Counted from the first letter of the stretch, positions 10,026-63,071 are shown. The stretch is DNA of 64,000 nucleotides from Planctomycetota bacterium (GCA_043803205.1 JAZDKG010000073.1:2129-66128); one strand, 5' to 3'. Notes: generated by a model not told the origin, from the sequence alone. Program-made: numbers and translations.

Positions 10026-10219
10026 ATCCCGACAGGGCGCGGGAAGCCGGCCCCGGGATTTCGGGATGAGGGGACGGCGGGAGAGTTGGATGCGCGCGGG
10101 GGAGGGTTTCCTCTTGTTGAGCGGATAGCGCCGCGGGACTCAGCCGCGAGTGCTGAGCGCGCCGAGTGGCTGTCTTGCGTCGCGCCGGCAACGCGGGATC
10201 GGCGCAAGGAGAAGGTGGA

Positions 10220-11278
10220 ATGCTGACGCCGAAGGAGAGGACGCTGCGGGCGCTGCGGTTTGAGCGCCCTGACCGCCTGCCCAAGGCGGACTTCTACTGG
10301 TCCGAGTTTGAGGCCATCGCCCGAAAGAGGCGCGCGATCCCGCCGGGCGTGTCGCTCGAAGAGCACTACGCGGTGGACATGGGGCTCCTCTTCCCGGACG
10401 AGGGGCCCTACACGACCCGCGCGGGCACCGTCCGGGAGACGGACACGGAGAGGATCCGCATCACTCCCTGGGGACAGAAGGTGCGTGAAGTGAAGGGGGC
10501 GTTCTTCAGCGAGGAGCTCGAATCGCCGATCCGGGAGCAGAAGGACCTCGATCGTCAGCCGTTCGATCCCCCAATGCTCCCGTCGCGATATGAGCATTTC
10601 CTTGACCCTTCCGTGTACCATCCGGACAAGCTCTGCTACTTCGTGAAAACGGGGGGCCCATACCTGCGGAGCGCGTTCGTGCGGGGACAGACGGAATGGC
10701 TCATGGACATCGCCGGGGACGAGGGATTCGCGAAGGAGCTCGCCTGGCGGATGGGGGACTTCCTCATGCAGGTCGGACGGGAGGCATTCAAGAGGTGGGG
10801 CGACACGTCCACGGGGGTGTGGATCTTCGACGACATGGCCTCCAACCGGGGCCCGATGTTCTCGCCCGAGAGCTTTGAGAGGATCTTACTGCCGGCGTAC
10901 CGGCACATGGTGAAGAGCTGGAAGGAGGCGGGGGCGAGCTACGTGCTTCTGCACTCGGACGGGAACATCGAGGTGCTCTTAGACATGCTGATCGAGGCGG
11001 GGATCGATGGGTTCAACCCGGTGGAGCCGCGCAGCGGGATGGACCTGGCGCGGCTGCACGAGAAGTACGGGAAGCGCGCGGCGTTCATCGGGGGGATGTG
11101 CAACTCGGTGGTGCTGCCGAGGGGGCCCGTCGAGAAGGTGCGGGAGCAGGCCGAGCGGATCATCGCGGCGGGGAGGGACGGCGGGGTTATCATCGGGGCG
11201 CACTCGATCGGCCCGGACATTCCCGTCGAGCACTACGAGGCGTACGTTGAGCTCGTGAACTCGTCGCGGTACGAGTGA
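10220..11278 (+). CDS. Uroporphyrinogen decarboxylase (URO-D) family protein, MtaA/CmuA-like (paralog 1)
   Basis: Length and conserved blocks of the URO-D / methylcobamide-methyltransferase family (FDDMASNRGPMFSPESF, HSDGNIEVLLDMLIEAGIDGFNP). RBS aaggagaagg before ATG 10220. Confidence 0.8.
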   Translation: MLTPKERTLRALRFERPDRLPKADFYWSEFEAIARKRRAIPPGVSLEEHYAVDMGLLFPDEGPYTTRAGTVRETDTERIRITPWGQKVREVKGAFFSEELESPIREQKDLDRQPFDPPMLPSRYEHFLDPSVYHPDKLCYFVKTGGPYLRSAFVRGQTEWLMDIAGDEGFAKELAWRMGDFLMQVGREAFKRWGDTSTGVWIFDDMASNRGPMFSPESFERILLPAYRHMVKSWKEAGASYVLLHSDGNIEVLLDMLIEAGIDGFNPVEPRSGMDLARLHEKYGKRAAFIGGMCNSVVLPRGPVEKVREQAERIIAAGRDGGVIIGAHSIGPDIPVEHYEAYVELVNSSRYE

Positions 11279-28498: not shown

Positions 28499-29557
28499 AT
28501 GCCGAAGGAGAGCATGACGGCGAGGGAGCGATGGGAAGCGGTGCTGGATCGGCGCAAGCCGGACCGTGTGCCAATGGACTACTGGGCTACGCCCGAGGCC
28601 GACGAGAAGCTGATGAGGCACCTCCGGGTGAACACGATCGAGGAGGCGCACGCCAAGCTTCACATCGATAGGCCCCTCACGGTGTCTCCGCGGTACGTCG
28701 GTCCGCCCCGTCCGCCGGGGACGAACCAGTGGGGGTGTCGGGTGCGACGGGTCCGTTACGAGACGGGGGTCTACGAGGAGATCGTCTCTCATCCGCTGGC
28801 GTCCTGCTCGTCGATCGAGGAGATCGACGCGAACTACCGGTGGCCGTCGACGGACTGGTACGACTACTCCCACCTCGCGGAGGAGATCCGGGGGCAGGAG
28901 CACCGTCCGGTCCAGGCCGGGGGGTCGGAGCCGTTTCTTGTCTACTGCGAGTTGCGGGGCCTGGAGCTGGGGATGATGGACCTGGTGACGGTGCCCGAGA
29001 TCGTCCGCCACTGCCTCGGAAAGCTCTTCGACTTCGCCTATGAGAACACTCGCCGGATCTATGAGGCGATCCCCGGGAGGGTGCTCATCTCGTACGTCGC
29101 GGAGGACATGGGGTCGCAGACGGACCTCCTTTTCTCGCCCGAGGCGATTCGTACCTTCTTCCTTCCCGGGATGAAGCGGATGAACGAGCTGGCGCATTCC
29201 GCGGGGGCGCGCGTCTTCTATCACAGCGACGGGGCGGTCCGGAAGATCGTGCCCGACATGATCGCGATCGGGATCGACGTCCTCAATCCCGTCCAGTGGC
29301 GCTGCGAAGGGATGGAGCGCCAGGCCCTCAAACGCGACTTCGGGGACAAGGTCATCTTCCACGGCGGCGTCGATAATCAGCACACGATCCCGTTCGGCAC
29401 GCAGGACGAGGTGCGCCGCGAGGTGCGAGAGAACATCCGAATCCTCGGCGCGGGGGGCGGATACATCCTCGCCCCGTGCCACAATATTCAGGCCGTCGGC
29501 CCCGCCGAGAACGTCGTCGCGATGTACGAAGAGGGGTACGCCTGCGGATGGACCTGA
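28499..29557 (+). CDS. Uroporphyrinogen decarboxylase (URO-D) family protein, MtaA-like (paralog 2)
   Basis: URO-D family blocks (YVAEDMGSQTDLLFSPEAIRTFFLPGMKRM, HSDGAVRKIVPDMIAIGIDVLNPVQ). RBS ggagg 7 nt before ATG 28499. Confidence 0.8.
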   Translation: MPKESMTARERWEAVLDRRKPDRVPMDYWATPEADEKLMRHLRVNTIEEAHAKLHIDRPLTVSPRYVGPPRPPGTNQWGCRVRRVRYETGVYEEIVSHPLASCSSIEEIDANYRWPSTDWYDYSHLAEEIRGQEHRPVQAGGSEPFLVYCELRGLELGMMDLVTVPEIVRHCLGKLFDFAYENTRRIYEAIPGRVLISYVAEDMGSQTDLLFSPEAIRTFFLPGMKRMNELAHSAGARVFYHSDGAVRKIVPDMIAIGIDVLNPVQWRCEGMERQALKRDFGDKVIFHGGVDNQHTIPFGTQDEVRREVRENIRILGAGGGYILAPCHNIQAVGPAENVVAMYEEGYACGWT

Positions 29558-29740: not shown

Positions 29741-31009
29741 GTGATGTTCATCCTTCTGCACTTGCCGATCATGGCGGCGCTGCTCGCCCTGTCGGCGCTC
29801 TTCTCGGGGTCCGAGACCGCGCTTTTCTCGCTGCGCGGCCCGGTCCAGGAGCAGATGCGCGGATCCACTAACCGGCTCGAGCGGCTGGCGGGGTACCTCC
29901 TCGACCATCGCAGGGAACTTCTCATCACGATCCTGTTGGGCAACATGATCGTGAATATCCTCTTCTATTCGATGAGCGTGCTGGTGTCCCTCGAGCTTTA
30001 CCGGCTGGGGCATCGGACGCTCGCGCCGCTGGCGGCGCTTGCGGGGCTCGCGTGCGTGGTGGTTTGCGGGGAGGTGAGCCCGAAGGCGATCGCGGTGCAT
30101 TTTCCGCGGCGCATCGCGCTGCTGGCGGCCTGGCCGATCTATCTCATCTACGTGGGGCTCACGCCCATCCGGGGCGTCCTCGGGAAGATCGTTGACGCGA
30201 TCACGCATCTCGCTTGGCGACGGAGGGTCCTCCTCGAGCACCTGACGGACGAGGAGCTGCGGGGGGTGCTCGACCTGGGACACCGCCAGGGCGTGCTGCG
30301 GGCGGACCAGATGTCGATGATGGCGGAGGTGATGGACCTCGCGGACACCGAGGTGCGGGAGATCATGACGGCTCGGGTGGAGGTGCCGCTCTTCGACATC
30401 GAGGGCGTCCGGGAGGAGCTCGTGGCGCTCATCCGGCGGGAGCGGTGCAAGTTCGTCCTGGCGTACCGGAGCTACCGGGACAATTCCCTTGGGATCCTGC
30501 GGGCGAAGGAGGCGCTGCTCTTTCCGGAGAAGCCGCTGTCGGAGCTCGTGCGGAAGGTCCCGTACGTGCCGGAGACGCGTCCGCTGGACGCGCTCCTGCG
30601 GGAGCTGCGGGAGGGCAAGCAGTCCGTGGCGATCGTGATCGACGAGCACGGGGGGACTGAGGGGGTTATCACGGTGGAGCGCCTCGTCGAGCGGATCGTG
30701 GGGACGATTCGACACGAGTATGAGAGGAGCGAGGAGGACGCGGTGCAGCTTTCGCCCGACTCCTGGAGCCTTGCGGGGCGTCTTCCGGCGCGCGATCTCG
30801 AGGACGTGCTCAGGGCGCCGGTGGAGGAAGGGGACTTCTCGACGCTCGCGGGGCTGGTGCTTTATCTCCTCGGGCGCGTGCCCGAGACGGGGGACCAGGT
30901 GCGCTTGGGGGATTTCCGGCTCACGGTGACGCGGATGAGCGGACGCCGGATCGAGCGCGTGGTTGCCGAAAGGCTCCCCCGGTCGGCGGACGGGGAGGAG
31001 CCGGAATAA
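29741..31009 (+). CDS. CNNM/HlyC-family transporter (DUF21 membrane domain, CBS pair, CorC_HlyC domain)
   Basis: Four N-terminal helices with GSETALFS (DUF21), a CBS pair, and a C-terminal transporter-associated domain (GDFRLTVTRMSGRRIERV). Confidence 0.85.
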   Translation: MMFILLHLPIMAALLALSALFSGSETALFSLRGPVQEQMRGSTNRLERLAGYLLDHRRELLITILLGNMIVNILFYSMSVLVSLELYRLGHRTLAPLAALAGLACVVVCGEVSPKAIAVHFPRRIALLAAWPIYLIYVGLTPIRGVLGKIVDAITHLAWRRRVLLEHLTDEELRGVLDLGHRQGVLRADQMSMMAEVMDLADTEVREIMTARVEVPLFDIEGVREELVALIRRERCKFVLAYRSYRDNSLGILRAKEALLFPEKPLSELVRKVPYVPETRPLDALLRELREGKQSVAIVIDEHGGTEGVITVERLVERIVGTIRHEYERSEEDAVQLSPDSWSLAGRLPARDLEDVLRAPVEEGDFSTLAGLVLYLLGRVPETGDQVRLGDFRLTVTRMSGRRIERVVAERLPRSADGEEPE

Positions 31010-31984
31010 ATGGGAATCGGCATCTTCCTACTGCTCGTGGCGCTGTTGGCTCTCGCCGGTTTCTACGGAGGCGTGGAGACGGGGGCGTATACGCTGAGCC
31101 GGCTGCGCCTCACGATGCTCGTCTCAAGGGAGGACTCGCGCGCCAGGGCCGTGCATCGGATCCTCGAGAAGCCGTCCGACGTGATCGCGATGACCCTCAT
31201 CGGGCAGAACCTGTGCATCTTCCTGGCGACGGCGCTTCTGACGGAGACGCTCAGGGCGCGCCTGCCGTCGCACACGGAGCTCTACGCGACGCTGATCCTG
31301 GCGCCGGTGATCTATGTGTTCTGCGACGCGGCCCCGAAGAACCTGTTCGCGCGCGGCGCGGACGTCCTTTTTTACCGGCTGATCGCCCCGATCCGCGTAT
31401 CGGGGGTGCTGTTCTATCCGGCGGTGGTGATGGTGCGGTTTATCAGCCGGTTCTGGCAGGCGGCGCTCGGGGGAAAGCCCGAGAGCGCGAACGCCTTCTT
31501 CCTCACGCCGGCGTACCTCACCTATCTCCTGTCGGAGAGCAAGAGCATCGGGCACCTTTCCGACTACCAGACGACCCTCGCCTTCAACATCATGAAGCTT
31601 TCGAAGCTCTCGGTCGACCATGCGATGATCCCCCTGGACAGGGTTGCGTCGTTCCCGAGGACGCTCGCCCCGTCGGAGGTCCTGACGGCGGCCAGGGGCT
31701 TCCCCTTCACGCGGTTCCCGGTCTACGAGGGGGAGCCCGCGAACATCGTGGGGGTCGTGAACGTGATCGATCTCGCCCTTGGGGCTGACGCGGGCGGCGG
31801 GCCCGACGCGCACGTCCGCCCCCTGGTCGCGGTGCCGCACACGGCGACCGTGCTGGACGTGCTCCAGCTCATGCGGGAGCGCTCGGCCCTGCTGGCGGCC
31901 GTCACGCGCGACGGACGACCGATGGGGATCGTAACCTTCAAAGATCTCGTGGAGGAGATCGCCGGGGAGCTCGGCGAGTGGTGA
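31010..31984 (+). CDS. DUF21-CBS domain membrane protein (CNNM paralog lacking the CorC_HlyC domain)
   Basis: The start overlaps the upstream stop (TAAATG). DUF21-type helices (GGVETGAYTLSRLRL) plus a CBS pair. At 324 aa it is too short to carry a CorC domain. Confidence 0.75.
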   Translation: MGIGIFLLLVALLALAGFYGGVETGAYTLSRLRLTMLVSREDSRARAVHRILEKPSDVIAMTLIGQNLCIFLATALLTETLRARLPSHTELYATLILAPVIYVFCDAAPKNLFARGADVLFYRLIAPIRVSGVLFYPAVVMVRFISRFWQAALGGKPESANAFFLTPAYLTYLLSESKSIGHLSDYQTTLAFNIMKLSKLSVDHAMIPLDRVASFPRTLAPSEVLTAARGFPFTRFPVYEGEPANIVGVVNVIDLALGADAGGGPDAHVRPLVAVPHTATVLDVLQLMRERSALLAAVTRDGRPMGIVTFKDLVEEIAGELGEW

Positions 31985-32003
31985 GGCGGCGCAGAAGGTT
32001 GTT

Positions 32004-32744
32004 TCACCGTTCCCAGTCGTCCTCGGGCCAGCCCTCGCCGACGTTGTAGGAGACCGTCGCGGGCACGCCCCCTCGGACGCGGATTCCCCCCAGAACGGGA
32101 TCGAAGCGGACGCGCAGCTTCTTCCACGCGTCGATGGTGAGCTGCTCGCGCTCGAGGACGACGTAGCCGCGCCGACGCACCCATCCGCCATAGCGGTTCT
32201 CGAAGTCCCACACCTCCACGCGCCAGAAGACCACCGGCTCGCTCGTGACGAGACTCGTCTGTTCCGTCATGAGCTTCTCGATCAGCAGGCGCGCCCACTG
32301 GTGGTGGCCGGCGAGGGCGAGGATGCGGCGCTTGTTCTCCCAGATATTCATCGCGCCCGCGTATTCCCGGATCGCCTCCTCATCCTTCTGCGTAAGGGGG
32401 GGCGCGGCCTCGCCGGGGAGCTCCACCTCGCCGAGTTCGTTCACGAGCTTGAGATTGGCGCCCTCGATCTTCCCGCCGTCGGTCTCGATCAGGAGGTCGT
32501 AGAAGCCGTCGGCGAGCCCGCGGACGATCCACGCGCCTTCGTCACGGACGGCGGGGTACCTGGGCTTGGGCCAGCCGCCGGGGGAGCGGTCGATGGCGCA
32601 CACGGAACGGACGACCTGCGCCGGCTCGATGCTCACGCGGATCTCTCCGGCGCTCGCGCAGAGGGCAAGCCAGAGGATCACGGCGGCGGCGCCCGCACTC
32701 GTGCGGAGGCTCTTACTCTTCCGGCGCGATATTCCCTTCGCCAT
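32004..32744 (-). CDS. Hypothetical secreted protein
   Basis: An N-terminal signal-like segment (AAAVILWLALCASAGE). No recognisable family. It is the last gene of the long minus-strand run. Confidence 0.45.
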   Translation of the reverse strand: MAKGISRRKSKSLRTSAGAAAVILWLALCASAGEIRVSIEPAQVVRSVCAIDRSPGGWPKPRYPAVRDEGAWIVRGLADGFYDLLIETDGGKIEGANLKLVNELGEVELPGEAAPPLTQKDEEAIREYAGAMNIWENKRRILALAGHHQWARLLIEKLMTEQTSLVTSEPVVFWRVEVWDFENRYGGWVRRRGYVVLEREQLTIDAWKKLRVRFDPVLGGIRVRGGVPATVSYNVGEGWPEDDWER

Positions 32745-33540
32745 TTGTGATCACCGTGTTATCTGGGCGCGGGGCGAGCGAGGAGAGATCGCCGTCCTTC
32801 TCGCTGCGCGCGGTCATGGACGCGTCGAGGCCCGAGGCCTTCGCCAGGCTCAGGCGCGCCTCGTCGAAGCGTCCGAGCTTCGCCAGGGCGCAAGCGCGGT
32901 CGTACCACGCCTTGGCGACGTCCGGGCGTATCGCCAGCGCCTGATCGAGCGTCTCGAGGGCCTCCCCGGCGAGGTCCAGATGGACGAGGATCGCGGCCAG
33001 GTTCACCAGGGCCGCGACGTTTCCGTGTTCGAGGTGGACGGCGCGCCGGGCGTACTCCAGGCCCTCTTCGTGACGGCCCAGCTTCGCTAGTACCGCGGCC
33101 GCGTTGGAGAAAGACGCCGCATGCTCCGGGTCGATCCCGGCAGCCCGCCCGAAGTCCTCGAGGGCCTCCTCCATCTTTCCGAGGCGCACGTTCGCCAGCC
33201 CCCGGTTGAAGTACGCGGAGAATCGCCCCGGGTCGCGAGCGATCGCCTGCTCGTAGGCCTCGACGGCCTTGTCGTACATTGCTATCTCCAGCCATGCGTC
33301 TCCGAGTTCCGAGAAGGCCCCGGCGTTGAGGTTGATCCCCAACTTCTCCAGAAGGAGGCGCGCGTGGATCGTGGTCGGGTCCACGCGGAAGTGGGTGATC
33401 CCGCGATCCCGCCTCAACCGGGATCCCGCGGCCGCGGGACCGCGAGACCGGACGCTGTGGGTGACCGCCGTCTTCCCGCGCCGCTGGGGAAGCCCCAGGA
33501 ACTCGCGCAACAGCCTTTCGATCGCGGTCACTTCACCCAC
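32713..33540 (-). CDS. TPR repeat protein (start uncertain)
   Basis: At least five TPR units (AWLEIAMYDKAVEAYEQAIARDP, AYFNRGLANVRLGKMEEALEDFGRA, ...). The track ORF start at 33654 overlaps the upstream cytochrome gene. In-frame GTG codons at 33540, 33531 and 33384 are candidate starts. Confidence 0.55.
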   Translation of the reverse strand: MGEVTAIERLLREFLGLPQRRGKTAVTHSVRSRGPAAAGSRLRRDRGITHFRVDPTTIHARLLLEKLGINLNAGAFSELGDAWLEIAMYDKAVEAYEQAIARDPGRFSAYFNRGLANVRLGKMEEALEDFGRAAGIDPEHAASFSNAAAVLAKLGRHEEGLEYARRAVHLEHGNVAALVNLAAILVHLDLAGEALETLDQALAIRPDVAKAWYDRACALAKLGRFDEARLSLAKASGLDASMTARSEKDGDLSSLAPRPDNTVITNGEGNIAPEE

Positions 33541-33551
33541 GGCGTTCCCGA

Positions 33552-34898
33552 TCACTTGCTCAGACGAAGGACGGCATTGCGGTGATCGATCTTCGGATAG
33601 TACGTGTCGAACTCGAACTTGGGGCTGTTCTCCGGGTCGTGGCAGGTGCGGCACTTCGATTCGTCGGGACGGGAGTAGGGGGCCAGCACGTTACGGAGGT
33701 GCCGGCTCCCGGGGCCGTGACACGCCTCGCACGCGACGTTCGCCAGATCAGGCGTGAGGGCGCGACTGCGGAAGCCTCCCTCATTCTCGAGACCGACGGT
33801 GTGACAGACGACGCACTCGGGATCCCGGTCGGCGCCTTCTTTCTCGAGGGAGGCCAGCGCCTCCTCATGTTTCACCGTGCGCCACTTGCGGAACTGCGGG
33901 AGGTGACAGCGGGCGCAGCCGCTCAAGCCCAGGTAGCGACGGTCCCCGATCGCCATCCGGGGAAAGCGATCGATCAGCCCCTCCTCCGAGACCTGGAGAC
34001 GGTAGTCGGCGAGAAGCTCCGCGACGGACTTGTCCTCCGGCATGTCCCCGGAGAGGAACGTCGGGGTGTAGCGCGTGCCGAGGACCGCCCCCGAGGGATC
34101 GAAGTCCACGTCGAGGCGCGCGACCCATTTCCCATAGAGACCGGTTCCCACGACGGCGGTCGCGCCGACCTTCTCCTCGGCCTCGGGGGGTTTCTCCTCG
34201 AGGTAGCCTCTCGCGGCGACGTCGATCCCCGGGGCCTCGCGCGCGATGCGCTTCGCCTCTTCGGCGCCGGCGTGGCAGAGGAGCACGACGAGGTCGGCGC
34301 GGGGACGCAGTTCCGCGACGAGTTCGCGCGCCGTCGCCACAGGGTCCAAGAGCTCCAGGTCGGGCGCCATGCTGGAGAGTTCGATGCGGAAGGCTTCCCC
34401 CAGGATGGCGAACACGGCCACGCGCCGGCCGCTCGGTAGCTCGATCACGATCGAGCGCTCGAAGGGAAAGCCGCCGTCCCGGCGCCTTGCGTTCGACAGG
34501 ATCAGGGGGACGGGGGAGCCGACGGCCTGGGCGTTGAGGGTGGACAAACCCAGGGCGAAGTCCCGGAAGCCCACGGCGCAGGCGTTGTATCCCATCTCGC
34601 CGAGGGCCAGGAGCGTGTACTCGTACTTGATCTCCTGCTGACGGCCCCCCTCCAGGACGAGTCCCCCGTTGTCGAGGAGGACGATCTCCCCGCCCGTGTT
34701 CCGGCGCAGTTCTCGCACGAAGGTCGAGCGACGGGGGAGGCCGCCCACCATGTCCTCCGTGCACCCGCAGGGGGCGAGGCGCCCCATCTGTTCGCCCGTG
34801 AAAAGGATCGTGAGGCGGGAGGGCTCATCCGCCGCGAGGGTTGCGACGCTCGAGACGAGGAGCACCAGATAAAGGACCAGAGGGCGGGCGCGCTTCAA
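33552..34898 (-). CDS. Fusion protein: N-terminal degenerate 5'-nucleotidase/metallophosphatase-like domain plus C-terminal tetraheme c-type cytochrome domain
   Basis: A TTG start at 34898 follows the RBS gggaggg and gives the signal peptide (M)KRARPLVLYLVLLVSSVATLAA. The N-terminal ~300 aa resembles the 5'-nucleotidase family (LLDNGGLVLEGG, VLLCHAGAEEAKRIAREAPGIDVA) but lacks the GNHE and GGH metal ligands. The C-terminal ~130 aa carries four CxxCH motifs (CARCH, CVVCH, CEACH, CRTCH). The upstream part of the track ORF is high-GC artefact overlapping the DUF1573 gene. Confidence 0.65.
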   Translation of the reverse strand: MKRARPLVLYLVLLVSSVATLAADEPSRLTILFTGEQMGRLAPCGCTEDMVGGLPRRSTFVRELRRNTGGEIVLLDNGGLVLEGGRQQEIKYEYTLLALGEMGYNACAVGFRDFALGLSTLNAQAVGSPVPLILSNARRRDGGFPFERSIVIELPSGRRVAVFAILGEAFRIELSSMAPDLELLDPVATARELVAELRPRADLVVLLCHAGAEEAKRIAREAPGIDVAARGYLEEKPPEAEEKVGATAVVGTGLYGKWVARLDVDFDPSGAVLGTRYTPTFLSGDMPEDKSVAELLADYRLQVSEEGLIDRFPRMAIGDRRYLGLSGCARCHLPQFRKWRTVKHEEALASLEKEGADRDPECVVCHTVGLENEGGFRSRALTPDLANVACEACHGPGSRHLRNVLAPYSRPDESKCRTCHDPENSPKFEFDTYYPKIDHRNAVLRLSK

Positions 34899-34915
34899 TC
34901 GTCCCTCCCGGGGCG

Positions 34916-36088
34916 CTACTCTTCGGTTGGCTCCTGCTCTTGCTCCGGCGGGCCGACGGGGGCAAGCGCCTCTCCCCGCACCCGCCAGGACACCGGCAGC
35001 GTGATGATCGGCTTTTCCCTTCCCTCCCTGTAGATTCGGATGACCGCGCGATGTCTTCCGGACCGACCTTCCCCCTTGGCGGTAAGGAACACGCGCGTTT
35101 CCTTCTCGGTCTTCTCGATCTGGAACTCCAGGGCCGGATCGGTCGCGTCCGCGCGGCTGACGGTGAAGTCCGGGATGTCGCTGGTGACGACGACCGCGCG
35201 CTTGCCCGAGGTCTTCCCCACCCGGACGCTTCCGAGGTAGACCGACCCCATGGGCTTGTAGGAGAAGTCGCCGACGACGGATCCCACGATGGGGAGGGCG
35301 AAGCGCGCACGGGGGGGATAGTTCGTCGTCACGACCAGTCTCTCGTCGATCTCCCCGACCTGGGCCTCGTCGGTGAGCTTGACGGTGATGCGGTAGCCCG
35401 GGTAGGTCTTCTCCGTCTCCTTTTCTTCTCCCTTCTCTCCTTCCTTTTCCTTGACGCGGACCGTGATCTGGGCGGGCTCGAAGGAGACGGCGAAGGCGGT
35501 GTTCGTGGTGGCGACCTCCTGAAGCACGAGGCCGAAGGCCCGGAGGTCGTAGACTTCGATCCCTGCGGAGGCGCCGGTGTCGAGCTTCACGCCGTCGAAC
35601 ACGACGCGTTCGGGGCGCACGCCGATCGTGCTCACCACGCGTCCATTCACCTGGAGCTGAAGCCCGTTCGGGTAGCGGGGATCGTTGCTGTAAACGATGA
35701 CGTGCTTGTTCTCGGCTTCCCCCTCGATGATGCTTGTCGTGACGCCGACCTCCATCACGGCCCTGTCCCCCTTGGAGAGGTCGGTGACGCTGAGGCGGGG
35801 GGTGAGGCAGCCGCAGTCCGCGACGGGAGTGCCCAGCTTGAGAATGCCGGCGCCGTCGTTGCGCAGGACGAAGTGCACCTGTTTGAGATCCCCCTTCTCC
35901 GCCTCTCCGAAGTTGACGACGAGGCCCCCCTCGACCACGAGGGCCGGGACGTAGAGGTCCTCGGGGAGAGGAAGCTGTTTGGTCGCGGGGGCGGGCTTGG
36001 ACTGGGCTTCGGCGGGGGGCTCCTCCGCGAAGAGGGTCGTCGATGCGACGAACACGGCGATCCATGCGAGTCTGGGTAGCAGGGACAT
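34916..36088 (-). CDS. DUF1573 domain secreted protein
   Basis: Signal peptide MSLLPRLAWIAVFVASTTLFA. DUF1573 hallmark (HFVLRNDGAGILKLGTPVADCGCLTP). RBS ggaaagga before ATG 36088. Confidence 0.7.
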   Translation of the reverse strand: MSLLPRLAWIAVFVASTTLFAEEPPAEAQSKPAPATKQLPLPEDLYVPALVVEGGLVVNFGEAEKGDLKQVHFVLRNDGAGILKLGTPVADCGCLTPRLSVTDLSKGDRAVMEVGVTTSIIEGEAENKHVIVYSNDPRYPNGLQLQVNGRVVSTIGVRPERVVFDGVKLDTGASAGIEVYDLRAFGLVLQEVATTNTAFAVSFEPAQITVRVKEKEGEKGEEKETEKTYPGYRITVKLTDEAQVGEIDERLVVTTNYPPRARFALPIVGSVVGDFSYKPMGSVYLGSVRVGKTSGKRAVVVTSDIPDFTVSRADATDPALEFQIEKTEKETRVFLTAKGEGRSGRHRAVIRIYREGREKPIITLPVSWRVRGEALAPVGPPEQEQEPTEE

Positions 36089-36107
36089 CGCGGTTTTTCC
36101 TTTCCGA

Positions 36108-37517
36108 TCAGCCCTTCCGCTTCGTGATGAGGAAGACGACCACGGCGACGGCCGAGAGGACAACGAGGATGCCGATTCGCTTCACGAGCTTCGCATGGGC
36201 CTCGCGCGCCATCTCCTTCAGGGGCTCGACCTCAGCCTGCGCGGAGGCCCCTTGCGGCGTGGGAGGGGCGGCCTCATCGGGGACGAGCTCCTCCGCGTTG
36301 TACAGGATGGGACACAGCTTGATCTCGAGCTCCCCCCGGTTGTGCGCCGCCAAGAGCGGAAGGTACCGCTGGAGGGCGTTGTCGGCGAGCTCGGTATACG
36401 GGTAGTCCTTCCAGATGAGCTGGTTGGCGCAGAAGGCGTATTCGTACTGTTTCTGGCTGTCGCAGAAGCGGGCGAAGTATTCAACGGCCTTTCCGATCTC
36501 GATGTCCTTGGGGTACTTCTCGATCCACTTGGGAAGCTCCTCGTAGAGTTTTTCGAAGCGTCCCATGGCCACCTCCATCTCGACGGTGTGCCGCAGGGCC
36601 TGCGTGAGGAGGTGCCACCTCGGGTTTTGCGCCACGAGGTCATCGATGATCCCGAGAGCCTTGAGATAGGAGGCGATGGTGAGGTTCACGTCGTGGAGGA
36701 TGAAGTAGAAGCCCCGTTTCTTGTAGAGAAGGGCGAGCTGGTAGCGCAGGCTCAGGCGCTTGTCGGGGTCCTGGAAGCGCTCCTGGTTTTCCTCGGCGAG
36801 GTCGATCGCCTTGGCTATGAAGACGGGACGGGCGATCACATCCTCGCCCCTGCGCCTTCCCTCGGCGTAGCGGGAGTAGGCGTGCAGAAGGGCGATGAGA
36901 CCCAGGTACTCCTCCTCGTCGTCACGCGCGTCGGCGAGGTACACGCGCCAAAGGTCCACGAGGTCATCGGGCTGGATGGTCTCATCCTTCGGGTATTCGC
37001 GGTCCAGCAGCACGTAGTCCATGCGGGTGGCCTCGTAGCGGGCGCGACGCCCGAGCTCGGTCCCCTCGGAGCGCTCGTCGTCGGCGACGGCCTGATACTG
37101 CTCGATCGCCGCCTGAAGCCGATGTTGGACGGTCATCTTGTCGGCGGCGAGATACCCCGCCACGAGGTCCTCCGGGAGCTTCTCCACCTCGGCGAGGAGG
37201 CGCAGCTCCCGCTGGATCTCCCCCGACATGGGATTGTAAGGGTCGCTCTCGAGGAGCCTGCGGGCGTAGCGGCGGGCCTCCTCGAAGCGCTTGAGGAACA
37301 TCATGGCCTTGACGATCTGGAGGCCGATCTCTCCGCGTCTCTCGAACGTGGGGTAGATCGCGAGCAACCCCGTGGCGTGCCGGACGAAGGTATCGTAATC
37401 GCCGACCTCCAGTGCCGACATCGCCTCGCTCACCTTCTGGGAGACGGTCGCCCCGGCGGCGCTTCGTGTCAGGAGCAGGACCGCCGCGAGCGCAAAAATC
37501 CCCAAGCCCTGTTTCAT
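36108..37517 (-). CDS. Secreted TPR-like helical-repeat protein with C-terminal transmembrane anchor
   Basis: Signal peptide MKQGLGIFALAAVLLLTRSAAG. Helical repeat content. C-terminal hydrophobic anchor IGILVVLSAVAVVVFLITKRKG. Confidence 0.5.
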   Translation of the reverse strand: MKQGLGIFALAAVLLLTRSAAGATVSQKVSEAMSALEVGDYDTFVRHATGLLAIYPTFERRGEIGLQIVKAMMFLKRFEEARRYARRLLESDPYNPMSGEIQRELRLLAEVEKLPEDLVAGYLAADKMTVQHRLQAAIEQYQAVADDERSEGTELGRRARYEATRMDYVLLDREYPKDETIQPDDLVDLWRVYLADARDDEEEYLGLIALLHAYSRYAEGRRRGEDVIARPVFIAKAIDLAEENQERFQDPDKRLSLRYQLALLYKKRGFYFILHDVNLTIASYLKALGIIDDLVAQNPRWHLLTQALRHTVEMEVAMGRFEKLYEELPKWIEKYPKDIEIGKAVEYFARFCDSQKQYEYAFCANQLIWKDYPYTELADNALQRYLPLLAAHNRGELEIKLCPILYNAEELVPDEAAPPTPQGASAQAEVEPLKEMAREAHAKLVKRIGILVVLSAVAVVVFLITKRKG

Positions 37518-37656
37518 GCAACGCCTTTCCGGAACAGCTCCGTCGTCCTGCCGGAGTCTCAGGGGGTCGGCCGGCGTCCAATTATAGCGGGGGTCACCCC
37601 GCGCTCAAGCGCGTCCGCGACCGGCGCGGACGCGCGCGGGCTCTTCGGCGACGATG

Positions 37657-38130
37657 TCAGTCGGGCACGTAGGTCACAAACAGGAAGGTGTCCATGTCGT
37701 TCACGCGGACCCGGTCGTCGAACAGCGCGTAAGATTCGCCCGCACGCAGCGTGACGAGCATCTTCTTCGTCGTCTTGTAACCTTCCTTGTCCTTGTCCCA
37801 GCGCAAGAGCGCCACCGTCAGCTTGATGTCGGCTTTCCCGATGCTCGTCAGTGCCAGCTCCAGGCGGTCGACGTCCGTGAGTTGTTGCGTCACTTCTTCG
37901 CCCACGCCCATCCTGTAGCGTTTGTCTCCCACGAGCCTGTAGCTCGCGTAGCGCTGCTTTCGCAGGACGTTGGCGACGTCCGCCAGTTCCGTGGGGATGG
38001 GCGGCTCGGACCTCTCGTTGCTTGCCACGACCACGCGCACGCGGACGGTGGCTTTCTCTTGGGCGCCGGCGGCGCCGCAGAAGAGAAAGCCCGCCAGCGC
38101 GATCAGGACAAGGAACGAGGTCGTTTTCAT
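37657..38130 (-). CDS. Small secreted protein of unknown function
   Basis: Signal peptide MKTTSFLVLIALAGFLFCGAAGAQE. RBS ggaggg before ATG 38130. It lies immediately downstream of the anti-sigma gene. Confidence 0.5.
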   Translation of the reverse strand: MKTTSFLVLIALAGFLFCGAAGAQEKATVRVRVVVASNERSEPPIPTELADVANVLRKQRYASYRLVGDKRYRMGVGEEVTQQLTDVDRLELALTSIGKADIKLTVALLRWDKDKEGYKTTKKMLVTLRAGESYALFDDRVRVNDMDTFLFVTYVPD

Positions 38131-38211
38131 CGGTGAGCCCTCCAAGGCTGCCCCGCGCCTGACCTTATCATAGCCCGCGCCGCCGTGGCCCACAAGGAAC
38201 CGCCGGATAAT

Positions 38212-38712
38212 TTACCCGCCGGACGGCGCCTGAGGCGAGACGAACCACACCAGCGACACCCCCTCGTCGGGGTAGTCGAGGAGGACGGCGGTCGAGCCGT
38301 CGAAGACTTGCACTTCCTCGACGGGGATTAAGCCGTTCGCGTTCGCGGTCATCGCGAGGTTGATCGGGGGCGTCTCGTTGATGCTTCGGGGCCATAGGAC
38401 GATCGCCGCCACGACGGCCGCGGCGGCGGCGAGAACGGCGAGGCGGGCCGTCATCCGCCAGGCGCGTCCAGGGACTTCGACGGCGACCGGGGGTTTTTCG
38501 TGCAGGCGCTTCCAGACGGCCTGCCACTCGCCCTCGCCGGTCTGGCGCTGGTAAGCGGCCCGAACGCCTTCGGTCACGACGCGGAATTCCATCGTCGCCT
38601 TCGAGCATGCGGCGCACCCGTCGATGTGAGCGCGGACCTCCTTGGACTGGGCGGGCGCAAGCTCGCCGTCCAGGTAGGCGCTCAGGATCTCCCCGTCAGG
38701 ACACGCGTTCAT
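38212..38712 (-). CDS. Anti-sigma factor, zf-HC2 zinc-finger type, single TM helix
   Basis: HIDGCAACSK motif. TM helix LAVLAAAAAVVAAIVLW. The start overlaps the ECF sigma stop (ATGA). Confidence 0.65.
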   Translation of the reverse strand: MNACPDGEILSAYLDGELAPAQSKEVRAHIDGCAACSKATMEFRVVTEGVRAAYQRQTGEGEWQAVWKRLHEKPPVAVEVPGRAWRMTARLAVLAAAAAVVAAIVLWPRSINETPPINLAMTANANGLIPVEEVQVFDGSTAVLLDYPDEGVSLVWFVSPQAPSGG

Positions 38713-39296
38713 GACTCCTCCTCGAAGTAGCCTTTGCCGCGGAGCGCTTCGCGCAGGGCCTGCCGCGCGTAGAAGAGGCGGCTCATCACCGTCCCCACAG
38801 GCACCCCCAGAGACTGCGCGGTCTGGGCATAGCTCAGGCCCGCCTGGGTGACGAGCGTGAGCACGACGCGCTGCGGCTCGGGAAGCCCGCGCATGGCCTC
38901 TTCGACGAGGCGCGCCAACTCGCGGCCCTGCGCCTCGTCGTCGGGGGAGCGCTCATTACGGGATCGCGGCGGAACCATCGTTTCGAGCTCCTCCGAGGCC
39001 TCGAACATCTCCTTCCCGCGCCGGGCGCGAAGGGCGTCGAGCCCAGCGTTCGTGACGATCCGGCGGAACCAGGTGCCGAGGCTCGAACGGCCCTCGAAGC
39101 GCCCGATGCTCCGGAAGGCCTTGAGGAACGCCTCTTGGACCACGTCCATCGCGTCCGCGTCCCTTCCGACGATGCCCATGGCGATCGCGTATGCCAACCC
39201 TCGAAAGCGTTCAAAGAACTCGCGGCAGGCCTCTTCGTCCCCTGCGCGAACCCTTCGCACGAGGGCTTTTTCGTCCTTCGGCCTCGCAGACTCCAT
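38709..39296 (-). CDS. ECF (group 4) RNA polymerase sigma factor
   Basis: Sigma-70 region 2 (VVQEAFLKAFRSIGRFEGRSSLGTWFRRIVTNAGLD) and a region 4 HTH (LSYAQTAQSLGVPVGTVMSRLFYARQAL). Confidence 0.85.
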   Translation of the reverse strand: MESARPKDEKALVRRVRAGDEEACREFFERFRGLAYAIAMGIVGRDADAMDVVQEAFLKAFRSIGRFEGRSSLGTWFRRIVTNAGLDALRARRGKEMFEASEELETMVPPRSRNERSPDDEAQGRELARLVEEAMRGLPEPQRVVLTLVTQAGLSYAQTAQSLGVPVGTVMSRLFYARQALREALRGKGYFEEES

Positions 39297-39355
39297 GAAC
39301 GATGCTCGTCTATAAGAGTAGACGTTTCCGGCGGGCGATTATTCGCCCCCCGACG

Positions 39356-40429
39356 TTATTGCGGCCCCAGCCACATGTACAGGAAGGGGGACCAGGACCG
39401 ACGCTCCCGCGCCTCGGCCTCCCACGGAAAGAGGCGCATCTCGGACCGCGCCGCGAGGAGCATCGCCGCAAGCCCGGGCTTGCGCCAGTATCGGACGACG
39501 GAGGCCTGCGGGGCGCCGGCGAGACGCTTCGCCTCCGCGATCGCGTCCCCCAGGTAGCCGATTCCGTCGATGAGGTGGAGTTCCTTCGCCTGCTCGGCGG
39601 TCAGGATCCGTCCGTCGGCGACTTGCTCGAAGTCCGCCTCCGTCATCTTCCCTTTGCGGCCGCGCATGACGACCTCCTTGAAGCGCCGGAACATGGCCTC
39701 CACGATCTCCTGGATGAGCTTTGTTTCCTCCTCGGTGACGTCGCGCATGGGGGAGAGGATGTCCTTCACGGCCCCGCTCTTGAAGGTGACCTGCTTCACG
39801 CCGGCCCAGTCGGCGAGGCCCTTGTAGTTGAAGCTCGCGATGATCACGCCGATACTCCCCGTGACGGTCGTCGGCTGGGCGATGATGGAATCCGCTCCGG
39901 CGCTGACGTAGTAGCCGCCGGAGGCGGCGATGTCCTTCATCAGCACGACCACCTTACGGCCGCCCCGCTGGAACTCCTCCATCTTCCGGACGAGCTCGTC
40001 GCTGGCGGTGACTCCACCGCCCGGGCTGTTGACCTCGAGGATGAGCGTGCGCACCCGATCATCGGCCGCGGCCTTGCGGAACGCTTCGCTCAGGACCTCG
40101 ACCGGCCCATGATAGGTTCCCCCGTATTCGAAGATCGGCCCCGAGAGGTCGATGACGGCGATGCGGTCGGGATCGACGCGTTTCCCTTCGATGTACGCCT
40201 CGTTGAGGACGGGGCCCGGGCCCATCCCTTCCGTGAGGTACGCGAGGTTGCCGACGATCGCGATCACGATGAACGCGATAAAGCCGATGGACACGATCCG
40301 CCAGAAGATCGACCTGCGGCGGGGCGGAGCGGCCTCGATCACGAGCCGCTGTACCGGCGGGGTCTCGACACGTCCCGGCGTCGGTCCTCCCAGCGGCTCT
40401 TGGGCTTGGCTTGTTCCGTCGGTTTCCAT
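39356..40429 (-). CDS. sppA: Signal peptide peptidase SppA (S49 family, 36K type)
   Basis: S49 blocks (VIDLSGPI, NSPGGGVTASDEL, IAASGGYYVSAGADSIIAQPTTVTGSIGVI). One N-terminal TM helix. ATG 40429 follows the RBS aaagga. The longer track ORF is rejected. Confidence 0.85.
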   Translation of the reverse strand: METDGTSQAQEPLGGPTPGRVETPPVQRLVIEAAPPRRRSIFWRIVSIGFIAFIVIAIVGNLAYLTEGMGPGPVLNEAYIEGKRVDPDRIAVIDLSGPIFEYGGTYHGPVEVLSEAFRKAAADDRVRTLILEVNSPGGGVTASDELVRKMEEFQRGGRKVVVLMKDIAASGGYYVSAGADSIIAQPTTVTGSIGVIIASFNYKGLADWAGVKQVTFKSGAVKDILSPMRDVTEEETKLIQEIVEAMFRRFKEVVMRGRKGKMTEADFEQVADGRILTAEQAKELHLIDGIGYLGDAIAEAKRLAGAPQASVVRYWRKPGLAAMLLAARSEMRLFPWEAEARERRSWSPFLYMWLGPQ

Positions 40430-40440
40430 GGCGTTTTCCT

Positions 40441-40743
40441 TTACCGCTCGGGGGGTTCCTCTTCGCAGGAGCAGGGGATGCGGCGACAGACGGGGCAGCC
40501 TGCGGCGTATTTTCTCGCCACGGCCTCCTCGAGCCTCACCCCCGCGAGGTTCGCTAAGCCGCACAGCCACGCGAAGGCGTCGGCGAACTCTTCGGCTTGG
40601 CCCTCCCCGTCCGACTCGCGCAGGGCCTTGCCGAGCTCTCCGACCTCCTCGACGAACCAGGCGTACGTCCACGCCAGGCCCCTGCGCGTATCCTTGCGCA
40701 GGTAGGTGGCGGCGATCCGGTCCTGAAACGCGCTGATCTCCAC
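40441..40743 (-). CDS. MazG-like nucleotide pyrophosphohydrolase domain protein (small, all-alpha)
   Basis: EISAFQDRIAATYLRKD...WTYAWFVEEVGELGKALRE...AEEFADAFAWLCGLANLAGVRLEEAVARKY matches the MazG/YpjD-like fold. GTG 40743 follows the RBS gggaaggag. Confidence 0.55.
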   Translation of the reverse strand: MEISAFQDRIAATYLRKDTRRGLAWTYAWFVEEVGELGKALRESDGEGQAEEFADAFAWLCGLANLAGVRLEEAVARKYAAGCPVCRRIPCSCEEEPPER

Positions 40744-40925
40744 AGGACGCTCCTTCCCGTTTCCGCGTGCGCACGCATTATAGACGAGGGCCTTCCGGCG
40801 CACAAGGAAGGGCGCCGGTGCGCCCGGGGCTTGGGCGCGGGACCGCAGACCTTGACGGCAGCGGCGCCCGTGGGCCAAAATGCCGTGCCGCACGGGCAAC
40901 GTCGTATCTGGGGAAAGGAACGATC

Positions 40926-42053
40926 TTGACTGCGAAGCAGCGCATTTTAGCGGCGCTCCGGTCGGCTGTGCCCGACGCGGTCCCGGTCACGCTCGGGACG
41001 AGCGAGATGGTGCCCGTCAGGAAGTCGGGCCTCGATTACATTCAGTTCTTCTGGCGCGAGAAGCGCAGCCTCGTGCGGGCCCGCTGCGACACGGAGAAAG
41101 GCTTCGGAGGGGACGTGTTTCTGCATTCGGGCCCCGGCCCGTCCGCGGGCGATCCGGAGGTGACCACCGAAACGCTGAAGGACACGCTCGAAGAGGTCAT
41201 CTACCGGGAGACGATCCACACGCGCAGGGGGGGGCTCTCGAGCGTGCTGCGGATCACGCCCACGGAGTCGATCGCGACGCTTGAGGGCGCGGTGAAGGAC
41301 GCGACGGCCGACCGGGAGAAGGTCCTCGATCTCCTAGCCGATCCCGAGGGCAAGGACTACTCGGACTACGTCTCCGACCACGCGTACGTCGGGGACGCGG
41401 GGCACTGCGGGCTGTGGCTCTCGACCCCGATCGACTGGTGGTCGGGGTTGCGCGGGAGCCCCGAGAAGGCGATCTACGATCTTGCGGACCACCCGGAACT
41501 CATGAAGGACCTCTTCGCCGCATACACGAGGTACGCCGCCGCGCTCATCGCCGATTTCCTCGCGCGTTACCGGGCGATCGCAGACTCGATCGGTCTGGGA
41601 GGAAGCACGACGTCCATGTCGGTTATCTCGCCGGCGCTGCTTCGCGAGCACGCGGTCGGTTTCGTGCGGGCGATCAAGGGGGAGGCGGCGCGCTGCGGCG
41701 TCCCGGTCCAGTACCACATGTGCGGACGCTCACGGGAGGCGATCCCGATCCTCGTGGAGGCCGGGGTGGACGGCATGGACGCCCTCGAATGCCCCCCGAC
41801 GGGGAACGTGGACCTCGCCGAGGTGAAGAGGCTTTTCGGATCGCGCATCTCGCTGCGGGGGAACGTGAACTCGATCACGGTGATGCTGCGCGGGTCGCCC
41901 CGCGACGTCGAGCGGGACGTCCTGCGCTGCATGGAGGCCGCCAAGAAGGGGGGAGGGTATGTCCTGGGAGTGGGGGACCAGGCGCCGTACCATACCCCCG
42001 ATGAGAACCTCGCCGCATTCGTGGAAGCCGGTCGGAGATACGGGAAGTACTAG
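40926..42053 (+). CDS. Uroporphyrinogen decarboxylase (URO-D) family protein (paralog 3)
   Basis: URO-D family C-terminal blocks (HMCGRSREAIPILVEAGVDGMDALE, GGGYVLGVGDQAPYHTP). A TTG start at 40926 follows ggaaagga. The track ORF from 40767 adds an Arg/Gly-rich artefactual N-terminus. Confidence 0.7.
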   Translation: MTAKQRILAALRSAVPDAVPVTLGTSEMVPVRKSGLDYIQFFWREKRSLVRARCDTEKGFGGDVFLHSGPGPSAGDPEVTTETLKDTLEEVIYRETIHTRRGGLSSVLRITPTESIATLEGAVKDATADREKVLDLLADPEGKDYSDYVSDHAYVGDAGHCGLWLSTPIDWWSGLRGSPEKAIYDLADHPELMKDLFAAYTRYAAALIADFLARYRAIADSIGLGGSTTSMSVISPALLREHAVGFVRAIKGEAARCGVPVQYHMCGRSREAIPILVEAGVDGMDALECPPTGNVDLAEVKRLFGSRISLRGNVNSITVMLRGSPRDVERDVLRCMEAAKKGGGYVLGVGDQAPYHTPDENLAAFVEAGRRYGKY

Positions 42054-48009: not shown

Positions 48010-48117
48010 GACTCCCCGATTGACGCGACTCGATTATACCGCCCTCGGCCCGCGCTCCCAATCCCTTCCAACGAGGAGCTTGCGGGAGGGGGAAGGCGCC
48101 GACTCGCCGCGCCGGCC

Positions 48118-62779: not shown

Positions 62780-63071
62780 GGGCCACCTCCGGTGAGGAAA
62801 AACGGGCACGACTCGCAACCATTATAAGCGCCCGGCGTCGAGGAGGGGAGAAGAACTTTACCCCGCCGCGTCGGCGCCCAGCGCCCCAAGGGGCTCTAAC
62901 AGAACCAGGTGCGAGTCGCGTTGCGAGCGCGACGGCGTCGGATGCAAGGCGCGACGAGGAGGCATATCAAGAGAAGGATATGGCGACGAGGAGTAACACA
63001 GCAGCCGACGCTGTCCCGCCGCAACCCGAAGGGACGCGCGCAGTTCCACCTCATCTTGTGCTTCCTCCTTC

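Follow-up and report, generated by a model that had tools for sequence, protein, structure and literature searches.

An apparent mosaic of transcription units around a putative periplasmic heme-to-thiol redox pair in a Planctomycetota bacterium

We analyzed a run of minus-strand genes at 32004-40743 of a 64,000-nucleotide stretch of DNA from a Planctomycetota bacterium (GCA_043803205.1 JAZDKG010000073.1:2129-66128); the whole stretch is called the window, and positions are counted from its first letter. The run had been described from the sequence as eleven genes forming one self-regulated envelope stress or extracytoplasmic redox/adhesion module. By inspecting start codons and ribosome-binding sites we delimited ten open reading frames, and the gaps between them are too small for another. 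They are numbered g10 to g1 in the order of their minus-strand positions. On balance we lean toward reading the run as a mosaic of neighboring transcription units, one of which would be a five-gene operon around a periplasmic heme-to-CxC thiol redox pair, g4 and g3. The gene anatomy, as read directly from the DNA, is as follows.

40441-40743, minus strand: g10, a putative MazG/PRA-PH-like small pyrophosphohydrolase, 100 amino acids (aa), GTG start, cytoplasmic
39356-40429, minus strand: g9, the signal peptide peptidase SppA of the 36K type, 357 aa, with a single N-terminal membrane helix
38709-39296, minus strand: g8, an extracytoplasmic function (ECF, group 4) sigma factor, 195 aa
38212-38712, minus strand: g7, a zf-HC2 (HxxxCxxC) single-pass anti-sigma factor, 166 aa, with an ATGA overlap with g8
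37657-38130, minus strand: g6, a secreted protein of no known family, 157 aa, with its own weak sigma-70-like promoter
36108-37517, minus strand: g5, a helical, weakly tetratricopeptide repeat (TPR)-like periplasmic protein, 469 aa, with a predicted signal peptide at the N terminus and a membrane anchor at the C terminus
34916-36088, minus strand: g4, a secreted DUF1573/OS_HP2-family protein, 390 aa, with a signal segment and C92-G-C94 as its sole two cysteines (Cys)
33552-34898, minus strand: g3, a secreted fusion of a 5'-nucleotidase/UshA-like domain and a c554-type tetraheme domain, 448 aa, TTG start
32713-33555, minus strand: g2, a cytoplasmic TPR protein, ~280 aa, whose GTG start overlaps the g3 stop
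32004-32744, minus strand: g1, a signal-anchored or secreted protein with a ~210-aa domain, 246 aa, with a 32-nucleotide (nt) out-of-frame overlap with the end of g2

A frame plot of third-position GC gave minus-strand coding without a break from ~40900 to 32004 in this window of ~66% G+C. The run ends with a strand switch on both sides, upstream at a plus-strand URO-D-like gene that starts near 40767 and downstream at a convergent CNNM gene that ends at 31984, which confirms the co-directional run of the original prediction. Its short gaps are likewise present in the sequence: from g10 to g1 the intergenic distances are 11, 59, -4, 81, 139, 19, 17, -4, and -32 nt, the sigma/anti-sigma junction of g8 and g7 is the ATGA stop/start overlap it described (GAGTCATGAACG), and g3 and g2 meet in a GTGA overlap. 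Since a rough gene map places further same-strand runs of seven to eight genes elsewhere in the window, co-directionality alone is unremarkable. Pfam and NCBIfam scores together with alignments upheld every earlier domain call, the MazG-like one with borderline scores, and the predicted topologies agreed with the earlier ones, with signal-like N termini on g6, g5, g4, g3, and g1, a C-terminal anchor on g5, and no signal on g2. The products are overwhelmingly extracytoplasmic or envelope-associated.

The g3 product, identical in sequence to a 448-aa NCBI protein of a Planctomycetota metagenome-assembled genome (MAG), scored 246.4 bits against NF041198, below the cut-off of 275, and covered positions 5-271 of the 519 in that model. 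Its C-terminal part belongs to the cytochrome c554 family (PF13435, 54.2 bits against a threshold of 20.8), with CxxCH at residues 328, 362, 390, and 416, so that g3 carries four heme-binding sites at which heme attachment is predicted. In an alignment of 22 g3 homologs, from which we built the profile A1, all four CxxCH motifs were invariant, as were C44 and C46. The latter two belong to a PCGC loop at residues 43-46, eight residues past the former metal-binding motif I.

The N-terminal domain of g3 aligned to the 5'-nucleotidase 2z1a (profile E = 4e-25), and the AlphaFold2 model (mean predicted local distance difference test score, pLDDT, 87.7) found 5'-nucleotidases as its best Foldseek matches (E ~1e-22). 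The alignment to 2z1a shows directly that, throughout the family, motifs I, II, III, and V have other residues in place of their metal ligands, HTNDTH having become tGeqlG, GD nG, GNHE gard (FRD in the window), and GGHSH tgvla, and that the motif IV His alone is kept. Pfam returned no PF00149 metallophosphatase match in g3. The substrate-binding C-terminal domain of 5'-nucleotidases is gone, and the c554 tetraheme domain stands in its place. The fold is therefore retained and the calcineurin-like dimetal ligands are not. One could still suppose that g3 is a phosphoesterase or nucleotidase whose hemes serve in anchoring or sensing, and that the cluster scavenges phosphate or nucleotides; the clear 5'-nucleotidase-like fold is what speaks for this. 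However, a residual phosphoesterase is unlikely because the Asp, His, and Asn ligands are lost, and with the PF00149 match and the substrate-binding domain absent as well, we regard this explanation as highly improbable.

To follow g3 beyond its close relatives, we used the A1 profile to retrieve 80 loci from species-representative genomes of many phyla, with 24-34% identity to g3. PCGC was found in 54 of the 80 homologs, and in 21 a TGA codon replaces the second Cys. Every one of these 21 in-frame stops at C46 is TGA, and ~20 nt past it lies a conserved hairpin, CUGGCCC-GGA-GGGCCAG, that fits a bacterial selenocysteine insertion sequence (SECIS) element; for both reasons we take the 21 homologs to be selenocysteine (Sec) forms of the UshA-like CxU family, and the equivalence of Sec and Cys at this position is visible directly in the genes. 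The TGA forms are those of L007, L008, L010, L012-L015, L019, L022, L023, L025-L027, L037, L050, L056, L061, L071, L076, L080, and L081, with the gene near locus position 10100 where flanks are full. The tetraheme-fused UshA-like selenoprotein is present in Fibrobacterota, Eisenbacteria, Krumholzibacteria, Acidobacteriota, and other groups.

As a general rule, Sec/Cys interchange marks catalytic redox residues, and CxC motifs are redox-active mimics of CxxC. A different use of the two motifs, as soft-metal sites for Cu(I), Hg(II), As(III), or an Fe-S-type center, would make the pair a periplasmic metal reductase or chaperone. This would suit the general affinity of vicinal CxC for thiophilic metals and the frequent role of multiheme cytochromes in metal reduction, and many surveyed selenoprotein families handle metals, for example MerT-like, ZntA, and CobW (PMC9312934). 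However, neither the operon nor the conserved neighborhoods hold metal-resistance or transport genes, and replacement of Cys by Sec falls mostly at catalytic redox positions, which leaves a soft-metal role decidedly unlikely.

The neighbor of g3, g4, is a DUF1573 protein with C-x-C (PF07610, 44.9 bits against 26.1), although it did not reach the subfamily model NF041425 (E = 1.8e-10, 41 bits against 100). A PDB sequence search with g4 gave chance-level matches only. The CxC motif is kept in 92% of 39 family members that adjoin g3 homologs, and in the selenoprotein forms of OS_HP2 the DUF1573 motif reads UxC (PMC2398784). Both UshA-like CxU and DUF1573 UxC are listed selenoprotein families whose function is not described (PMC2398784, PMC9312934, PMC13188914).

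Searches of the 80 loci with tblastn and iterated profiles, in flanks of up to 10 kb that were sufficient to judge in ~71, located a g4-family gene directly upstream of the g3 homolog, in the same orientation, at 35 loci and downstream of it at one; these flanks gave no g4-family match in any other position. The pair, whose distribution is seen directly in these genomes, spans at least three phyla, with carriers among Planctomycetia, Phycisphaerae, Brocadiia, Armatimonadota, and Nitrospirota. The anammox genera Kuenenia and Scalindua have it as well. Profile searches of the same loci gave no relevant homolog of g5, g6, g7, g9, g10, g1, or, beyond generic TPR matches, g2 beside g3. The neighborhood conservation analysis proposed with the original prediction thus came out in two parts: the DUF1573-cytochrome pair is conserved, whereas no other cluster gene recurs beside these distant cytochrome homologs. 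Where adjacency could be evaluated, a DUF1573 gene adjoined 34 of 51 Cys-type versus 1 of 18 Sec-type loci (Fisher p = 5e-6), a contrast confounded with phylogeny. Our literature search for the pairing of DUF1573 with tetraheme cytochromes, or for its function, returned selenoproteome lists only, and the pairing is unreported in the papers searched.

Taken together, the DUF1573 adjacency, the Sec at PCGC in about one quarter of the homologs, and the occurrence of the partner mainly with Cys forms point to heme-linked thiol/selenol chemistry in the periplasm. In g3, a 5'-nucleotidase fold has lost its metal ligands, gained a PCGC loop beside the former active site, and acquired a four-heme c554 module at its C terminus. 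In the mechanism we propose, the hemes would trade electrons with carriers in the periplasm as well as with the dithiol/disulfide at the CGC site of g3, and this site would in turn react with the g4 CxC or with some disulfide- or polysulfide-type substrate presented by g4. On this reading the g4-g3 pair probably passes electrons between hemes and thiols in the extracytoplasmic space. We infer, rather than observe, which way electrons flow, what the substrate is, that g3 and g4 are in contact, and what g5, g6, g2, and g1 do. A separate MAG protein from Planctomycetota, P0033, has a c554-type multiheme domain fused to Redoxin/AhpC-TSA thioredoxin-fold domains; as a second, independent fusion of this kind, it indicates that heme-thiol fusions recur in this phylum.

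The SoxB family offers another way to read the same parts. In a Sox-like carrier chalcogen system, g4 would act as SoxY does and carry a covalently bound sulfur or selenium species, which the SoxB-related domain and the hemes of g3 would process in the manner of SoxB and SoxAX. The N-terminal domain of g3 does match SoxB (TIGR04486 E = 5.6e-15; 2wdc and 4uwq in the PDB, E ~3e-10), c-type hemes are fused to it, an immunoglobulin (Ig)-like CxC protein is encoded next door, and Sec forms are typical of sulfur and selenium redox enzymes (PMC13188914). On the other hand, 5'-nucleotidases outscore SoxB by far, and g3 is itself no SoxB, its score of 54.6 bits being far below the equivalog cut-off of 550 and the dimetal site needed for SoxB hydrolysis being lost. 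The Cys residues of g4 sit in the middle of a beta-sandwich domain and not on a C-terminal GGCGG arm, and no other sox genes lie nearby. We therefore consider a Sox-like carrier quite unlikely and keep to the heme-to-thiol pair.

The surroundings of the pair differ among groups. In 11 Planctomycetia loci it follows a WecA/MraY-like family-4 glycosyltransferase and an O-antigen-ligase-like membrane protein (~810 aa, with a C-terminal TPR region), a context that hints at a link to envelope glycan assembly; these loci are L009, L018, L021 (the cultured Kolteria novifilia Pan216), L028, L036, L045, L048, L063, L065, L067, and L075. In Phycisphaerae the pair precedes a proline-rich membrane protein, and in Fibrobacterota and Eisenbacteria the cytochrome stands alone in a housekeeping context. 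The contig of L047, labeled Chitinophagaceae, has the YebC, RbfA, and IF-2 (convergent) neighborhood of the Pirellulales loci L031, L034, and L040, and the taxonomic label of its bin may be wrong.

How the ten genes are transcribed was assessed from promoter-like signals, which could be located directly. The hexamer TATAAT occurs five times in the window against 0.8 expected, at 4803-4808 (plus strand) and at 37581-37586, 40777-40782, 48033-48038, and 62821-62826 (minus strand). All five copies lie in non-coding DNA upstream of a same-strand gene, and TATAAT is seemingly all but reserved for promoters in this GC-rich genome. The candidate promoters of the run are the following.

40777-40782, minus strand: TATAAT -10 box, 34 nt upstream of g10, the putative sigma-70-type promoter of the mazG-like/sppA unit
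39319-39344, minus strand: ECF-type motif GAATAATCGCCCGCCGGAAACGTCTA (GAAT-N16-CGTCTA) in the spacer between sppA and the sigma gene, a putative autoregulatory promoter
37581-37608, minus strand: the sigma-70-type candidate TTGAGC-16-TATAAT, 64 nt ahead of g5, from which the g5-g1 operon would be transcribed

The candidate ahead of g5 matches 10 of 12 consensus positions, and its TATAAT is conserved ahead of the g5 orthologs in L001 and L083, within otherwise diverged spacers, as well as ahead of a 26%-identical g5-like gene in L086. The TATAAT ahead of g10 similarly recurs before the L083 ortholog amid otherwise diverged DNA. For g6, the 81-nt spacer after g7 contains TTGTGG-17-TATGAT, and relatives have TTTGCA-18-TAGAAT in the matching position. 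The GAAT-N16-CGTCTA pattern has a single match in the whole window, upstream of the sigma gene, and L083 and L084 share its spacing and end motifs (GAATACGCCGTTCCGTCGTGCGTCTA); presumably it resembles SigW-type ECF promoters, and the ECF sigma factor appears to act on its own gene. The original prediction had called for a search for the target motif of this sigma factor upstream of 37517 and 38130, and no match was found in either spacer, that is, before g5 or g6, even with looser patterns. One of the 19 GAAC-N17-CGTC matches in the window, at 38320-38344 (minus strand), falls within the 3' end of g7, ~190 nt ahead of g6; it may have arisen by chance or may be a weak ECF-type promoter internal to g7.

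A scan for terminators gave no excess over shuffled sequence and none that was credible between units, and an Rfam scan of 31000-42000 returned nothing at E <= 0.1, hence no riboswitch or small RNA that would account for the 139-nt spacer between g6 and g5. The gaps inside g5-g1 are 19, 17, -4, and -32 nt versus 81 and 139 nt around g6. Because separate promoter-like signals precede the units, at least four initiation points are suggested in the run. The first unit would be the mazG-like gene and sppA behind a sigma-70-type promoter, with ordinary envelope and nucleotide housekeeping roles. The second would join the ECF sigma factor to its zf-HC2 anti-sigma factor, translationally coupled and probably autoregulated from the ECF-type promoter. 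The small secreted protein g6 would form the third from its own weak sigma-70-like promoter. The fourth would be the tightly packed operon g5-g4-g3-g2-g1 behind TTGAGC-16-TATAAT, with the g4-g3 module as its presumably ancient two-gene core.

The order of the genes in close relatives bears on whether these units nonetheless belong together. We grouped the very few close relatives as lineage B (L001, L002, L083, L084, and L167, with a mutual DNA identity of 79-82% and ~50% protein identity to the window), lineage C (L085 and L170), and lineage D (L169). L083 keeps the order from mazG to g4 and L001 that from sigma to g1, so that the two jointly reproduce mazG-sppA-sigma-antisigma-g6-g5-g4-g3-g2/g1. 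The full order recurs solely in this narrow, uncultured Planctomycetota clade at ~50% amino-acid identity. In L169 (52% identity) g4 and g3 are followed by a convergent gene, and there is neither g2 nor g1. The downstream flanks of L001 and L085 are syntenic with the window, with two CNNM/CBS genes, in L001 a URO-D-like gene, and an OB-fold/HD gene. Because these unrelated genes are syntenic too, the conservation of order is largely general synteny. Upstream of mazG the flanks differ, with a BNR gene in L083 versus a URO-D-like gene in the window, and this mildly supports a block boundary at mazG that the two have in common. The original prediction had allowed that the cluster would be coincidental if its order were kept in no related genome and transcript mapping showed each gene to be expressed independently; close relatives do keep the order, but that conservation is functionally little informative.

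It was on these grounds that we weighed the original proposal, in which all ten genes would be one envelope-stress, redox, or adhesion module under the resident ECF pair, with SppA clearing cleaved peptides and the secreted proteins as effectors. The genes are co-directional and closely spaced, their order is kept in L083 and L001 at ~50% amino-acid identity, and the block appears to share its boundary at mazG. In Bacillus subtilis, moreover, sppA is under SigW control, and the candidate promoter here is SigW-like. Against this, g10, g6, and g5 are preceded by independent, conserved sigma-70-type promoter candidates, with the ECF-type motif only before the sigma gene, and the L086 g5-like gene heads its own unit after a divergent coiled-coil gene with no sigma/anti-sigma genes upstream. 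In metagenomes, none of the 80 closest sigma-factor relatives (<=41% identity) had another cluster gene within 6 kb, and so they never adjoin SppA, DUF1573, or cytochrome genes; the distant cytochrome homologs, for their part, never adjoin a sigma factor, SppA, g5, g6, g2, or g1. Together with the general synteny of the two CNNM, URO-D, and HD genes downstream, this makes a single ECF-driven module unlikely. What stands of the original reading is its envelope and redox character, in the extracytoplasmic products and a conserved DUF1573-cytochrome unit with a likely redox role; what finds no support is the single self-regulated module. The whole cluster is not a new system: nothing about SppA, the ECF pair, or the TPR proteins is out of the ordinary, and their adjacency is clade-level synteny.

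Several observations weigh against the mosaic and the redox pair as we read them. The promoters are consensus matches whose footprint support comes from two to three lineages, and, with no terminators found between the units, transcription may run on from sppA into the sigma gene or from g6 to g5. The ECF target motif was derived from two lineages, so a degenerate site ahead of g6 or g5 may have gone unseen, and the GAAC-N17-CGTC match is present in the 3' end of g7. The order from mazG to g4 is kept despite a differing upstream flank, which hints at some selection on the block. As for the pair, about one third of the Cys-type and nearly all of the Sec-type homologs have no adjacent DUF1573 gene, hence the partnership is not obligatory; the contrast between Cys and Sec forms in this adjacency is confounded with phylogeny, and a CGC motif can also bind soft metals.

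The g10 product gave borderline scores against PF03819 (24.8 bits, cut-off 22) and PF01503 (24.6, cut-off 21.3) and matched no NCBIfam model; it is 69% identical to the L083 ortholog, which has the same position there, and a ribosome-binding site, GGGAAGGAG, precedes its GTG. The g9 product is an SppA/S49 protease homolog by TIGR00706 (196.9 bits, cut-off 155.45) and PF01343 (E = 1.3e-40), with a membrane segment at residues 41-59 and visible AASGGYY and KDILSP motifs, which we take to be the Ser/Lys dyad of SppA. The g8 product (TIGR02937, 116.7 bits against 42.9) has both region 2 (PF04542) and r4_2 (PF08281) and, at 195 aa, no space for regions 1.1 or 3, as in ECF (group 4) sigma factors. 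It fits no named ECF equivalog, the best being PRK11922 (144 bits against 204), with SigW (TIGR02948) at 96 against 243. The g7 product is a ZAS-type anti-sigma factor (PF13490, 41 bits against 22.2) with H-IDG-C-AA-C in its sequence and a membrane segment at residues 88-106, and zinc and sigma binding are predicted for it.

The accessory genes are of narrower distribution. For g6 we found no Pfam, NCBIfam, or PDB relative, and its orthologs occur solely in L001 and L083 (38-45% identity); it is a possible periplasmic partner of the anti-sigma factor. The g5 family is clade-restricted, with three clusters among 5.8 billion proteins, and an exhaustive profile search of 1.84 billion representatives returned only its own family and one distant relative. 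Exact-sequence look-ups with the g3 and g5 of the window returned no record. The g2 product matched TPR_1 (E = 6e-26), has no signal segment, and follows g3 in L001, L167, and L170 and not in L169. For g1 there was no Pfam or PDB relative, and its AlphaFold2 model, from a four-sequence alignment, was unusable (pLDDT 47.9); PDB sequence searches with g1, g5, and g6 gave chance-level matches only. In lineage B (L001 and L167) g2 and g1 are fused as one 522-aa protein of TPR, transmembrane segment, and domain, from which we suggest that g2 and g1 work together across the membrane. The fusion gene lies at 5715-7283 in L001, 2048-3370 in L167, and 4801-6459 in L002; the last, nearly identical to L001, shifts frame once more close to the 3' end of the gene, through assembly error or strain variation. 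An assembly frameshift as the cause of the split between g2 and g1 in the window was considered and rejected, as the window, L085, P0040, and P0042 all have g1 as a separate gene, and the fusion is the exception. Overall, g5, g2, and g1 are clade-specific accessory proteins that may provide a membrane-anchored scaffold or anchor for the pair.

Two side observations concern the flanks. The tandem CNNM/CBS (CorC-type) genes at 29741-31009 and 31010-31984 (plus strand) converge on g1, with stop codons 19 nt apart, and L001 and L085 keep both genes downstream of the cluster. The window further holds three URO-D-like (PF01208) paralogs, at 10643-11251, 28499-29557 (plus strand), and 40767-42053 (plus strand), two of which flank the cluster; these are probably an expansion of a methyltransferase/decarboxylase-like family.

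The part worth following is the g4-g3 pair, a new variant within sequence families that are known and functionally uncharacterized. UshA-like CxU selenoproteins have stood unexplained in selenoproteome lists since 2008, and DUF1573 is a large family of unknown function. We put forward, tentatively and as a possibility we would not yet back, that DUF1573 CxC proteins and PCG[C/U] tetraheme cytochromes make up an unrecognized, widespread periplasmic redox system in which a heme chain drives a thiol/selenol center directly. If so, the system would span Planctomycetota, Armatimonadota, Nitrospirota, and other phyla, would be a respiratory-chain-linked disulfide/polysulfide oxidoreductase or a Sox-like carrier independent of the DsbD/thioredoxin route, and would provide a first function for the large DUF1573 family. 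The function of the pair is testable in cultured carriers, for which Kolteria novifilia Pan216 and Bremerella are candidates.

Among known systems, the g8-g7 pair resembles ECF/ZAS envelope-stress pairs such as SigW-RsiW in its group-4 sigma factor, its HxxxCxxC single-pass anti-sigma factor, the ATGA overlap, the candidate autoregulatory promoter, and an SppA gene directly upstream of g8. It differs in that g8 is below the equivalog cut-offs, that sppA here shares a sigma-70-type promoter candidate with mazG, and that the nearest g8 relatives elsewhere are not beside sppA. With SoxYZ/SoxB/SoxAX, the g4-g3 pair has in common an Ig-like reactive-Cys protein, a SoxB-related domain of 5'-nucleotidase fold, and c-type hemes, all periplasmic, whereas g3 is without the SoxB dimetal ligands, the Cys of g4 are not on a C-terminal swinging arm, and there is no sox operon context. 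The C-terminal 130 residues of g3 match cytochrome c554 of Nitrosomonas europaea (1bvb/1ft5; PF13435; E = 2e-22) and share its four CxxCH motifs, although in g3 the module is fused to a non-heme domain and stands outside a hydroxylamine-oxidation context. The N-terminal 270 residues correspond to the UshA-like CxU family (NF041198/COG0737; Zhang & Gladyshev 2008, PMC2398784) at E = 5e-73, with PCG[C/U] in the matching place, secretion, and coexisting Sec and Cys forms; unlike that family, itself likewise without known function, g3 scores below the cut-off and has the second half of the model swapped for a c554-type tetraheme domain. Finally, g4 shares with the DUF1573/OS_HP2 family (PF07610, NF041425) the domain with C-x-C, read as UGC/UxC in Sec forms, and the signal peptide, but it is multi-domain, with ~240 extra residues, and represents a subfamily encoded specifically beside PCGC tetraheme cytochromes.

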